64,000 nucleotides of DNA from Escherichia coli (lineage in GTDB: Bacteria > Pseudomonadota > Gammaproteobacteria > Enterobacterales > Enterobacteriaceae): the NCBI RefSeq assembly GCF_003334765.1, contig NZ_QOWT01000002.1. One strand, 5' to 3'. The notes beneath the pieces are model-generated. The model did no database searches. It saw only the letters and a list, made by a program, of their open reading frames with translations, and had not been told where the DNA came from. Shown here piece after piece: positions 17,648-63,070 of this stretch. The number at the start of each line of letters is the position of its first letter. The stretch's first letter is position 1. The position numbers were made by a program, and so were the translations under genes.

Positions 17648-18576
17648 TCTGCGTTCTCCACTAACGATATAACGTTGGCAATCGATAAATCGGGGTTATT
17701 GGTGTATTCACAGGAGAGCGCCATTGACGAACATCCCTGTGCGAAACGAACAGATTCGGCAAACGGCATTCCGTCTACCCAACACGAAGCAAGTCCCGCC
17801 ATCATGGCATCGCCCGCTCCGGTAACATTAATAACATTGGTTTTGATCGGCGCAGACCAGCCACTTTCACCGCTGATATCGCTGTAATAAACGCCGTCGC
17901 CGCCCATGCTCAATACCAGTCGGTTCAGGCCATGTTGATGGAACCAGGCAGCAACTTTTGCCACATCTTCACGCCCTGACAGCGCAATCCCACTCAGGGT
18001 TTCCGCTTCAAGGCGGTTTGGCTTGAGAGTGTGGATCTGATTTAGACGGTCGCGCACTTTGACACATTTCCATGCCGAAACCGGATCGACAAATACGGGT
18101 ACGTTGGCGGCATTATCCAGAATCCATGCCAGTGCCTCTTCACTGATATTACAGTCCGCGACAATGACCTTTGCCCTCTGAATAAATTCACCGTGCTGTG
18201 CGAGATATTCAGCTGTAATAGCGTTGCTAATATTCATGTCATTTATAGCAACCAGCATTTCACCGGTATTATCGAGTAATGATAAATAACTCGACGTATT
18301 TTCTCCCGGCACAATCAGGCATTTATCGACATAAACGCCAGATTGATTGGTTTGCGTTAGCAGCGATTGACCATAAAAATCACTGCCTACGGCGCTCAGT
18401 AGCCAGGCTTTGTTACCCAGCAACGCCAGGTTTTGTGCAATATTGCGCCCTACTCCACCAGGCGTAAATTTTATTTTACCTGGATTTGAATCCGCATAAT
18501 TTAATGATTCATGTGAATATCCGGCGACATCAATATTCGCCGAACCTATAATTACGACATAATCCTTTTCGCGCAT
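17635..18576 (-). CDS. psuK: Pseudouridine kinase PsuK/YeiC (PfkB family), 313 aa; overlaps the psuG start by 13 nt
   Basis: ORF track 313 aa; GGVGRNIAQNLALLG and TGAGDAMMAG ribokinase motifs. Confidence 0.93.
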   Translation of the reverse strand: MREKDYVVIIGSANIDVAGYSHESLNYADSNPGKIKFTPGGVGRNIAQNLALLGNKAWLLSAVGSDFYGQSLLTQTNQSGVYVDKCLIVPGENTSSYLSLLDNTGEMLVAINDMNISNAITAEYLAQHGEFIQRAKVIVADCNISEEALAWILDNAANVPVFVDPVSAWKCVKVRDRLNQIHTLKPNRLEAETLSGIALSGREDVAKVAAWFHQHGLNRLVLSMGGDGVYYSDISGESGWSAPIKTNVINVTGAGDAMMAGLASCWVDGMPFAESVRFAQGCSSMALSCEYTNNPDLSIANVISLVENAECLN

Positions 18577-60834: not shown

Positions 60835-61094
60835 GGTGTTTCCTCACCTTGCTCTTCCTGCTGGTGATAAACCAGCGACACCGCCAGCACGCCCTCTACG
60901 TTGCGTACTGACTCAATGGTTTGGATCAGCGTTTCGCTGTCTTCTGCTTCCACCACCACAATCAACTGACCGCTCGGCGCGTCGCTGACAGCAACTTCAC
61001 AGCCGGGAAAGGCGTTCAGTTGGGTGCTGATGTCTGAAATTCGTTCGCTTTTGGCCTGCACGACCAGGCTGCAAACTTGCCAGTTAGTGTGCAT
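60831..61094 (-). CDS. napD: NapA chaperone NapD, 87 aa
   Basis: ORF track 87 aa; overlaps napA start by 4 nt. Confidence 0.92.
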
Positions 61095-61578
61095 GGAGAT
61101 ACTCCGCAGTTATGGCTGATACCGGACAGCTGGCTGCACATGCTCCACATCCGTTGCAAAGTTGGCTATTAAGTTGCGGCTGGTAGATCCCGGAGAGCGT
61201 CGGGCGAAAGATAATTGCCATTGGCTCACAGCTATCCTGACAGCGGCGGCATTCAACTGACTGATACGCCAGGCACGCGTCCCCGATGGTGAACTGCAAA
61301 TCCCAGGCCCTGGTGTGGCGCGGAGAAAATAGCGATTCGGGGCAAGCCTGCGCGCAGGCGTAACAGAAGCTGCACTCGTTATTTTTGAAATTAACGCTCG
61401 GATAGCCGCCCGCGCCGCGTTGCAGAATGTTGTTTTCACAAGCATTAATACAGGCGTCGCAGCGGGTGCAATGGGTCAGAAAATGAGATTCATCACCGGA
61501 CCAGGGCGGACGGATACCGTTACTGGCTTTGCGCCAGCGACCAGTGAGTATGCCCCGACGGGATGCATCAATCTTCAC
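61084..61578 (-). CDS. napF: Ferredoxin-type protein NapF, 164 aa
   Basis: ORF track 164 aa; several CxxCxxCxxxCP motifs. Confidence 0.93.
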   Translation of the reverse strand: MKIDASRRGILTGRWRKASNGIRPPWSGDESHFLTHCTRCDACINACENNILQRGAGGYPSVNFKNNECSFCYACAQACPESLFSPRHTRAWDLQFTIGDACLAYQSVECRRCQDSCEPMAIIFRPTLSGIYQPQLNSQLCNGCGACAASCPVSAITAEYLHAH

Positions 61579-61686
61579 ATTGACCTTCCATCATTAACGC
61601 GCTCTGAAAATTGAGAGCGACCAAATAAACCGCATAATTAATAAGCCATTTTTATAGCCGCTAAGATATTAAAGGATGTGTCAAAG

Positions 61687-61851
61687 ATGCATACCCCGAT
61701 CGGGGTAAAACCTGTAGCAGGATCAAAAGAGTGGCGGGAAGCGTGGCAAAAACGGGCTTTTGCTCACATTTCAAATGGTTATAAATATATTTATATAGCG
61801 ATTGATTCACCAGAGATATTTCTGCTGGTTTGCTCTCTCATTAGAATTTAA
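61687..61851 (+). CDS. yojO: Small 54-aa ORF (MHTPIGVKPVAGSKEWREAWQKRAFAHISNGYKYIYIAIDSPEIFLLVCSLIRI) overlapping the napF control region; I recall a small annotated ORF (yojO) at this location in K-12, but expression and function are doubtful
   Basis: My own translation, below the ORF-track length cut-off; start codon lies inside the NarP palindrome; no obvious RBS. Confidence 0.3.
   Translation: MHTPIGVKPVAGSKEWREAWQKRAFAHISNGYKYIYIAIDSPEIFLLVCSLIRI
61692..61707. promoter_or_regulatory. NarP/NarL 7-2-7 binding site TACCCCG-AT-CGGGGTA in the napF promoter
   Basis: Perfect 16-bp palindrome matching the NarL/NarP heptamer consensus TACYYMT in inverted-pair arrangement, about 115-130 bp upstream of the napF start. 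Confidence 0.8.
61714..61727 (-). promoter_or_regulatory. Probable FNR site (TTGATcctgCTACA on the minus strand) about 21 bp upstream of the NarP site
   Basis: One perfect TTGAT half-site and one degenerate half-site; spacing from the NarP site is consistent with the known napF promoter architecture. Confidence 0.5.
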
Positions 61852-61985
61852 CACTAAAAGAGCAGGTAAAATTGTCTGAATGTTCTTTAAGTTATTCATA
61901 AAGCAAATTAATAAATCTGATGAATATGTTAACCTTCAGCGACATCATCGGTGAAAACCTATAAATGAAGAAGGAAAGCAAAAAA

Positions 61986-62474
61986 ATGAAGACCATTCTA
62001 CCTGCAGTATTGTTTGCCGCTTTCGCTACCACTTCCGCCTGGGCGGCAGAAAGCGTCCAGCCACTGGAAAAAATCGCGCCTTATCCACAAGCTGAAAAAG
62101 GGATGAAGCGTCAGGTGATTCAGTTAACCCCGCAAGAAGATGAATCTACCCTGAAAGTAGAACTGTTAATCGGTCAGACGCTGGAAGTCGATTGCAATTT
62201 GCATCGTCTCGGCGGGAAGCTGGAAAACAAAACGCTGGAAGGCTGGGGCTATGATTATTATGTCTTTGATAAAGTCAGTTCCCCGGTTTCAACGATGATG
62301 GCCTGCCCGGATGGCAAGAAAGAGAAGAAATTTGTCACCGCGTATCTGGGCGATGCTGGAATGCTGCGTTACAACAGCAAGCTGCCGATCGTGGTGTATA
62401 CGCCAGACAATGTAGATGTGAAGTACCGCGTCTGGAAGGCGGAAGAGAAAATTGACAACGCGGTAGTTCGCTAA
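61986..62474 (+). CDS. eco: Ecotin (periplasmic serine protease inhibitor), 162 aa from [10 protein letters not shown]...; track ORF begins 7 codons upstream
   Basis: Signal peptide; recognised ecotin sequence. Confidence 0.94.
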
Positions 62475-62476
62475 AC

Positions 62477-63070
62477 TGCCGTGAAGTGCGGCACCCCGTA
62501 GGTCAGACAAGGCGGTCACGCCGCATCCGACATCCAACGCCCGAGCCGGTTGCCTGATGCGACGCTGGCGCGTCTTATCAGGCCTACACCGCTGTGAAGT
62601 GCTCCACCCCGTAGGTCGGATAAGGCGGTTACGCCGCATCCGACATCTAACGCCCAAGCCGGTTGCCTGATGCGACGCTGGCGCGTCTTATCAGGCCTAC
62701 ACCGCTGTGAAGTGCTCCACCCCGTAGGTTGGATAAGGCGGTTACGCCGCATCCGACATCCAACGTCCGAGCCGGTTGCCTGATGCGACGCTGGCGCGTC
62801 TTATCAGGCCTACACCGCTGTGAAGTGCTCCACCCCGTAGGTCGGATAAGGCGGTTACGCCGCATCCGACATCTAACGCCCAAGCCGGTTGCCTGATGCG
62901 ACGCTGGCGCGTCTTATCAGGCCTACACCGCTGTGAAGTGCTCCACCCCGTAGGTTGGATAAGGCGGTTACGCCGCATCCAACATCTAACGCCCGAGCCG
63001 GTTGCCTGATGCGACGCTGGCGCGTCTTATCAGCATACGCCACATCCGGCATACCATGCCGGATGTGGCG
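62477..63070. repeat. Large BIME: five tandem 113-bp units, each a pair of inverted REP palindromes, ending in a perfect 15-bp-stem hairpin (63038-63070) adjacent to the mqo stop
   Basis: tgcctgatgcgacgctggcgcgtcttatcaggcctac recurs at 62551, 62664, 62777, 62890 and 63003 (period 113 bp), alternating with gtaggtcggataaggcggttacgccgcatccgaca-type REPs. Confidence 0.9.

Follow-up and report, generated by a model that had tools for sequence, protein, structure and literature searches.

The napF–eco intergenic spacer

The stretch of DNA analysed here, hereafter the window, comprises 64,000 nucleotides from Escherichia coli. Positions 61579–61985 are the intergenic spacer between napF and eco, and the napF-proximal 220 bp of this spacer are the established, already known control region of napF. 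The first gene of napFDAGHBC, napF, occupies 61084–61578 on the minus strand, with a GTG start at 61578 according to the list of open reading frames (RefSeq K-12 b2208, 2303003–2303497); eco (ecotin), the next gene downstream on the plus strand, occupies 61986–62474 (RefSeq K-12 b2209). The 407-bp spacer shows 100% identity with that of E. coli K-12 MG1655 (window position = NC_000913.3 coordinate − 2241919), although the larger segment 60001–63500 has no exact match in that genome. A megablast search found positions 61400–62100 in 5,422 of the 5,426 complete E. coli genomes, with an identity of at least 98% in all except one, and the annotation in these genomes reads napF, yojO (or "hypothetical protein") and eco. 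The adjacency of napF and eco extends to Escherichia, Citrobacter and related metagenome contigs. A search against Rfam gave no match between napF and eco. This control region, also known as aeg-46.5, has reportedly been studied in a series of papers (Choe & Reznikoff 1993; Darwin & Stewart 1995; Darwin et al. 1998; McNicholas & Gunsalus 2002; Stewart et al. 2003, 2009).

Binding sites and their conservation

A preliminary description of this DNA had recognized the spacer as the control region of napF, holding a site for NarP/NarL and, next to it, one for FNR, an identification that is borne out by the identity with K-12, by published work (PMC4549865; PMC3688515) and by conservation across genera. 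The cross-species footprint was drawn from at least seven enterobacterial reference loci (one divergent Escherichia, E. albertii, four Citrobacter and Leclercia), six diverse E. coli genomes and 21 metagenome contigs, the latter retrieved with an invariant 18-base core pattern; together, these spacers yielded 29 distinct sequences in the footprint. Fifteen of the 36 metagenome matches to the core pattern were attributed to chance and discarded, and one sequence, L051, was excluded for looking error-ridden. The sample contains neither Salmonella nor any sequence labelled E. fergusonii. Three segments are nearly invariant in the 29 sequences, namely 61662–61681, 61690–61709 (which holds the 7-2-7 site described below) and 61713–61731 (which holds the FNR site); positions 61758–61800 are moderately conserved, and conservation collapses after about 61805, inside the yojO open reading frame.

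The sequence TACCCCGATCGGGGTA at 61692–61707 is a perfect 16-bp palindrome, made of the inverted heptamers TACCCCG and CGGGGTA spaced by 2 bp (AT), exactly as the preliminary description had it. This 7-2-7 element, which has no strand, is centred at about −44.5 with respect to the napF promoter and lies 114 bp upstream of the napF start codon. Each heptamer fits the TACYYMT consensus at six of seven positions, the only mismatch being at position 7. Such a match is not significant by itself: with up to two mismatches, TACYYMT-N2-AKRRGTA occurs twice in the window versus 2.4 occurrences expected; perfect 7-2-7 inverted repeats number 10 in the window compared with about 3.8 in shuffled sequences. 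The TACCCC and G(G/A)GGTA arms are kept in 29 of 29 sequences, the variation being limited to heptamer position 7 and one G-to-A change; the centre reads CGATCG, CAATTG, CAATCG, CGATTG or CGATAG, with the central GATC missing in many species. Arms that are kept around a variable centre form the pattern expected of a site for a dimeric protein. Binding of phospho-NarP and phospho-NarL has reportedly been published for exactly this sequence (Darwin & Stewart 1995; Darwin et al. 1998).

The napF NarL/NarP 7-2-7 site has been located at −40 to −49 (PMC4549865), and NarP activates napF while NarL antagonises this activation (PMC9262595). Setting the centre of the 7-2-7 site (61699.5) at −44.5 according to PMC4549865 puts the probable +1 of the napF P1 promoter at 61655 on the minus strand, in which case the napF 5′ UTR would extend over 61579–61655. 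The putative −10 element of P1, TATCTT or ATCTTA on the napF strand (about 61662–61669), would then be part of the block TAAGATATTnnAGGATGTGT (61662–61681, minus strand), which covers the predicted −10 region and the spacer and is unchanged in the 29 distinct sequences.

Further upstream of napF, the FNR site TTGATCCTGCTACA (61713–61726, minus strand, centre at about −64.5) was read from the sequence and is conserved across genera. It reads TTGAT-CCTG-CTACA and its centre lies 20 bp from that of the 7-2-7 site (61719.5 versus 61699.5). The first half, TTGAT, is perfect, but the second, CTACA, is poor compared with ATCAA (two of five positions); the preliminary description, which had set an FNR-like pair of half-sites about 21 bp upstream of the palindrome, was thus correct as to the presence and the side of the site, though slightly off as to the distance. 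Overall, 7 of 10 consensus positions are matched, and the window holds 307 FNR-like matches with three mismatches or fewer. The GGATCAA half is nearly invariant across genera, the exception being Leclercia (AGATCAA). We take the offset from the older to the current K-12 coordinates to be approximately +1977. An FNR ChIP-seq peak assigned to napF, a promoter activated by FNR and NarP, is centred at 2301675 in the older coordinates (PMC3688515), which converts, approximately, to window position 61733, about 14 bp from the FNR site. Altogether, the NarL/NarP and FNR sites are credible because of their conservation across species and the published experiments, not because of motif statistics.

Two additional candidate sites lie beyond the FNR site. 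The first is found in a conserved block (61753–61774, no strand, centre at about −105), in which the Crp-like site reads CGGGC-TTTTGC-TCACA here and TGTGC-TTTTGT-TCACA in the sequences L057, L058 and L060. Set against the consensus TGTGA-N6-TCACA, the right half, TCACATTT, is perfect and conserved; on the left, E. coli has a poor match (CGGGC) and relatives a better one (TGTGC). The sequence TTTGCTCACATTTCAA is kept in Escherichia, Citrobacter and related metagenome sequences and is missing in Leclercia. We tentatively assign this block to Crp on the basis of the motif and of a site upstream of the napF FNR site that we take to be the published one (Stewart et al. 2009). The second candidate, the ModE-like operator GGTTATAAATATATTTATATAGCG (61777–61800, no strand, centre at about −133.5), has arms, GTTATA(T/A)A and TATATA(A/G)CG, that are kept across genera, around a 6-nt spacer that varies freely. 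With its inverted arms, of the GTTATAT/TAYATAACG type, it resembles the K-12 modA operator CGTTATATTGTCGCCTACATAACG. The positions of the FNR site (−64.5) and of the ModE-like operator (−133.5) presumably coincide with those of the published map (Darwin & Stewart 1995; McNicholas & Gunsalus 2002). ModE is known to activate nap, and IscR to repress it (PMC8139620).

The yojO open reading frame

The yojO open reading frame (b4604) occupies 61687–61851 on the plus strand (K-12 2303606–2303770), which corresponds to −32 to −196 of the napF promoter. The ORF list and the sequence both confirm what had been described, a frame of 54 codons that is divergent from napF; its 54-aa product is MHTPIGVKPVAGSKEWREAWQKRAFAHISNGYKYIYIAIDSPEIFLLVCSLIRI. 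The ATG had been placed inside the palindrome, which is not the case: the start codon (61687–61689) ends 2 nt before it (ATG CA TACCCC...). The overlap between frame and palindrome is nevertheless real, since codons 2–7 cover it, and from there the frame runs through all four sites, i.e. the 7-2-7, FNR, Crp-like and ModE-like ones. A weak Shine–Dalgarno-like AAGGA is present at 61672–61676, 10 nt upstream of the ATG, so that the earlier remark on the lack of a convincing Shine–Dalgarno sequence was fair without being absolute. On a hypothetical plus-strand yojO mRNA, positions +6 to +21, which hold the palindrome, would fold into a hairpin with a 6-bp G+C stem.

This frame is already annotated, as "uncharacterized protein YojO" in K-12 and as "protein YojO" by RefSeq in most E. 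coli, and Pfam lists a family named YojO (PF28594). The preliminary description had missed this annotation, as well as the Crp-like and ModE-like sites that lie under the frame. YojO homologues, 29–87 aa in length, were found in Escherichia and Shigella only, all carrying a precomputed PF28594 label; the local copies of Pfam-A and NCBIfam contained no model matching YojO, and the PF28594 label comes from precomputed tables. The literature searched held no report on the expression or function of yojO/b4604, and its mentions of the gene were confined to tables from SELEX work, one table of codon bias and a listing of genes for which array probe design had failed; the Ribo-seq and RNA-seq supplements that were searchable do not mention it.

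A consensus scan also picked out a sigma-70 promoter-like element, TTGAGA-16-CATAAT, at 61611–61638 on the plus strand (10 of 12 positions), inside the napF leader and directed toward yojO. Genomic SELEX performed in vitro with the RpoD holoenzyme gave a peak in the napF/yojO spacer for which the same hexamers are listed (PMC3946193). Note that this peak may equally reflect the napF promoters. The TTG of the −35 hexamer is found in E. coli proper only, the hexamer being CTGAGA in L030 and L063 and CAGAGA in E. albertii and L002, a divergent Escherichia. The lineage with the TTG is roughly the one with an open yojO frame, except that L030 and L063 keep the frame and yet have CTGAGA.

Tests of coding capacity

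Across species, the yojO frame is not maintained. A length of 54 in-frame codons is observed only in E. coli-type sequences; the frame is cut to 20 codons in E. albertii and L002, 33 in E. marmotae (by a TAT-to-TAA change), 16–17 in most Citrobacter and in L045, and 15 in Leclercia, and it runs for 44 codons in some other enterobacterial contigs. Outside Escherichia, the start codon is replaced by GTG, or by GAG in C. werkmanii-type sequences. The stops appear in the linkers between the sites, while the residues of YojO that look conserved sit on the sites themselves: HTPIGV corresponds to the 7-2-7 element, AGSK to the FNR site, AFAHIS to the Crp-like site and GYK.IYIA to the ModE-like operator. 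The last two sites, lying as they do under the frame, thus explain the apparent conservation of the middle part of YojO.

Substitution patterns give no sign of purifying selection either. Compared with the two divergent Escherichia sequences in which the frame stays open, pN/pS is 0.56 and 0.51 in the yojO frame versus 0.54 and 0.48 in the frame shifted by +1; with 9–14 differences per pair the sample is small, and weak selection remains compatible with these values. The neighbouring genes have pN/pS values of 0.09 (napF, against L030) and 0.04–0.06 (eco), the pN of yojO being about ten times theirs. Among seven E. coli sequences, the 12 polymorphic sites of yojO are spread 4/3/5 over the three codon positions, i.e. 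without any third-position bias, whereas nine of the ten polymorphisms in the napF and eco flanks fall at codon position 3. Eight of the 12 variable sites lie in the last 47 nt, and no part of the spacer is more variable than the 3′ third of the ORF. As to its length, when the dinucleotides of the 407-bp spacer were shuffled 2000 times, 385 of the shuffles (19%) contained an ATG-initiated ORF of at least 54 codons.

Among natural strains, two frameshift alleles are on record. One, a 1-nt deletion in an STEC lineage, yields a 63-aa product and is listed for 316 contigs; the other, found in a sequence type that bears the name Shigella flexneri, is a 1-nt insertion and yields 71 aa. The ORF is nonetheless intact in nearly all of the 5,426 complete E. 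coli genomes, where the deletion allele occurs exactly in only two, with ten related matches. Given this rarity of frameshift alleles among complete genomes, the integrity of the ORF within the species is uninformative and is not evidence against coding. The checks that the preliminary description had called for, on conservation and dN/dS of the small ORF, thus point in the direction it anticipated, namely that yojO is probably no real gene: in none of the comparative tests did the ORF behave as coding sequence, with a frame that is not maintained and a pN/pS equal, in this small sample, to that of the shifted frame. Judging from these sequence comparisons, yojO is most likely not a functional protein-coding gene.

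Interpretation of the locus

The reading that we favour, with a probability of about 0.88, is that the spacer is the known napF control region and that yojO is a stop-free frame across its binding sites, most likely no functional gene. In this account, the identity of the locus, its anatomy, its conservation and the coding tests come from the present analysis, and the binding proteins and the regulatory logic come from the literature or from general background. The region would work as follows. Under anaerobiosis, an FNR dimer would occupy the site at about −64.5; upon exposure to nitrate or nitrite, phospho-NarP bound to the perfect 7-2-7 element at about −44.5 would co-activate P1; at high nitrate, phospho-NarL would compete for the same palindrome and antagonise this activation. 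The Crp-like (about −105) and ModE (about −133.5) sites may add carbon-source and molybdate inputs, respectively. The fixed spacing between these sites would keep the yojO frame in register and the sites would hold its "residues" constant, while stop codons would come and go in the unconstrained linkers.

An alternative that leaves the ORF out of consideration is that a non-coding plus-strand transcript starts in the napF leader and crosses the napF promoter, acting by occlusion or interference, or reads through into eco. The 10/12 promoter-like element at 61611–61638 on the plus strand and the in vitro RNA polymerase binding peak in the spacer (PMC3946193) are consistent with such a transcript. 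However, the −35 hexamer already varies within Escherichia, the napF promoters alone may account for the SELEX peak, and eco has its own predicted promoter downstream (PMC3946193). We consider this transcript unlikely; if it exists, it would be compatible with the stop-free-frame reading and would not replace it.

A second alternative grants yojO the status of a genuine, very young, E. coli-specific de novo gene, transcribed from TTGAGA-16-CATAAT, translated from the ATG at 61687 and overprinting the napF regulatory region. Nearly every complete E. coli genome keeps the ORF, as do two divergent Escherichia metagenome sequences, RefSeq lists it and Pfam has a family for it, the full −35 TTGAGA is limited to E. 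coli proper, the RpoD holoenzyme SELEX peak comes with a promoter predicted toward yojO (PMC3946193), and the SD-like AAGGA lies 10 nt upstream of the ATG. Retention within the species is, however, expected even without selection because divergence there is only about 1–2%, and an ORF of this length is expected by chance. The pattern of change also argues against a gene: pN/pS is that of the shifted frame, changes are spread evenly over the codon positions, variation in the spacer is highest in the stretch for the C-terminal third, and frameshift or nonsense alleles break the frame in E. albertii, E. marmotae, STEC and the sequence type that bears the name Shigella flexneri. The hairpin that the palindrome would form near the mRNA start (6 bp of G+C, +6 to +21) and the lack of any expression or function report in the literature searched weigh in the same direction. 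A genuine gene here strikes us as very unlikely, and the fuller version, in which yojO arose in the E. coli lineage no more than a few million years ago and would be expressed reciprocally to napF, as slightly more doubtful again; the predicted reciprocity follows from the fact that NarP, NarL and FNR bind across the yojO start and its first 14 codons.

That the palindrome is instead a structural element (a terminator, an RNA hairpin, or a restriction- or Dam-related GATC palindrome) has a negligible probability: a 6-bp G+C stem with a GATC loop is possible and a Dam site does lie inside it, but no T-run follows the palindrome on either strand, the terminator scan made no call, the central GATC is lost in many species whose TACCCC and GGGGTA arms are kept, and the position is that of the published NarL/NarP site (PMC4549865).

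Returning to the reading of yojO as a frame held open over binding sites, its biological consequence is small, the napF promoter being a textbook case of FNR and NarP co-activation with NarL antagonism. What is mildly new concerns annotation: from the sequence comparisons, what best explains the YojO "protein family" is operator DNA that is conserved and is read in a single frame, and a protein named by RefSeq and the family PF28594 would appear to owe their "conservation" to transcription-factor sites. Surveys of pan-genomes, small proteins or de novo genes can be led astray by ORFs such as yojO. Should yojO prove to be translated after all, it would offer a clear instance of a gene that originated on top of a functioning operator array.

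Comparison with known systems

The E. coli K-12 napF (aeg-46.5) control region has the same sequence and the same flanking genes as the one analysed here, with no difference at the spacer, and shares with it the 7-2-7 element at −40 to −49 and the control by FNR, NarP, NarL and ModE. A NarL/NarP 7-2-7 site upstream of an FNR-dependent anaerobic respiratory promoter is also found at nrfA, nirB and fdnG, and NarL is an activator at several other 7-2-7 promoters, in contrast to its role as antagonist at napF. Like the napF element, those of other 7-2-7 promoters, for instance yeaR (PMC4549865), consist of inverted TACYYMT-like heptamers with a 2-bp spacer; unlike them, the napF element is a perfect palindrome and lies between the FNR site and the core promoter. 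As for yojO, it resembles the chance or overprinted "phantom" y-genes, which are short, species-restricted, devoid of a coding signature and located over functional non-coding DNA. It differs from other phantom y-genes in its unusually convincing "conserved N-terminus", which stems from several operators at fixed spacing: whereas annotation treats YojO as a protein, the comparative evidence gathered here suggests that what is conserved in the family is the DNA beneath it, with its NarL/NarP, FNR, Crp-like and ModE-like sites.

Conservation of the operator sites in the napF control region

Two Dam GATC sites lie in the operator region of napF, one centred exactly within the NarL/NarP palindrome (61698–61701) and the other within the FNR half-site (61721–61724). 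In our cross-species comparison, the former is missing from many relatives; the latter is invariant, because it overlaps the TTGAT-C of the FNR half-site. The palindrome itself shows natural variation: O157:H7, E. albertii, Leclercia and some metagenome sequences carry a G-to-A substitution at position 61703, which turns GGGGTA into GAGGTA and makes the palindrome asymmetric. This variant could tune the affinity of NarP/NarL for the site. Elsewhere in the window, a single sequence, TACTCCACCAGGCGTA (18451–18466), comes within two mismatches of the NarL/NarP 7-2-7 consensus, a match expected by chance.

A second perfect 16-bp palindrome, TATAAATATATTTATA (61780–61795), is found within both the ModE-like operator and yojO, an annotated 54-codon ORF. 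Its perfection is allele-specific: position 61786 is a T in K-12 and O157:H7 and a C in the remaining five of the seven E. coli sequences sampled. The same cross-species comparison delineated a conserved block, TTTGCTCACATTTCAA (61753–61774), which is present in Escherichia, Citrobacter and their relatives and absent from Leclercia. The right half of this block is a perfect Crp half-site, and the left half is a better match in relatives, where it reads TGTGC. We take the block to be, probably, the Crp site reported for the catabolite control of napF.

The region upstream of napF in Leclercia (L008 in our comparison set) lacks the ModE-like part, the Crp-like part and eco; read by eye, the sequence that aligns there looks like a tRNA gene. 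Because Leclercia lacks the ModE-like and Crp-like parts, the distal half cannot be regarded as a universal component of the napF control region.

Features of the napF leader

The region encoding the napF 5' UTR contains, on the plus strand and hence antisense to the UTR, a sigma-70-like promoter, TTGAGA-16-CATAAT (61611–61638), which is included in an RpoD SELEX study (PMC3946193); its -35 element is restricted to E. coli proper in the cross-species comparison. On the minus strand, the leader contains two structures (61599–61633), namely a small stem-loop with a T-run after it (61633–61617) and an adjoining CGCUCU/AGAGCG hairpin. An interaction between ArcZ and the napF mRNA has been detected by RIL-seq, according to a review (PMC8139620).

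Sequences flanking eco

Upstream of eco, two motifs, AATTAATA and GAATATGTTAACCT (61906–61935), are kept across Escherichia and Citrobacter and presumably belong to the promoter or regulatory sequences of eco. For eco, the SELEX study gives a predicted promoter, GCGACA-15-TATAAA, located approximately at 61938–61964, and it also flags H-NS (PMC3946193).

The eco–mqo interval (62501–63035, plus strand) contains five tandem matches to the Rfam family RF02564, naRNA4 (CssrE), all scoring above the gathering score. The repeated 78-aa 'ORFs' that appear in this interval are artefacts of the repeats. The repeats form a REP/BIME cluster, which we take to be REP325.
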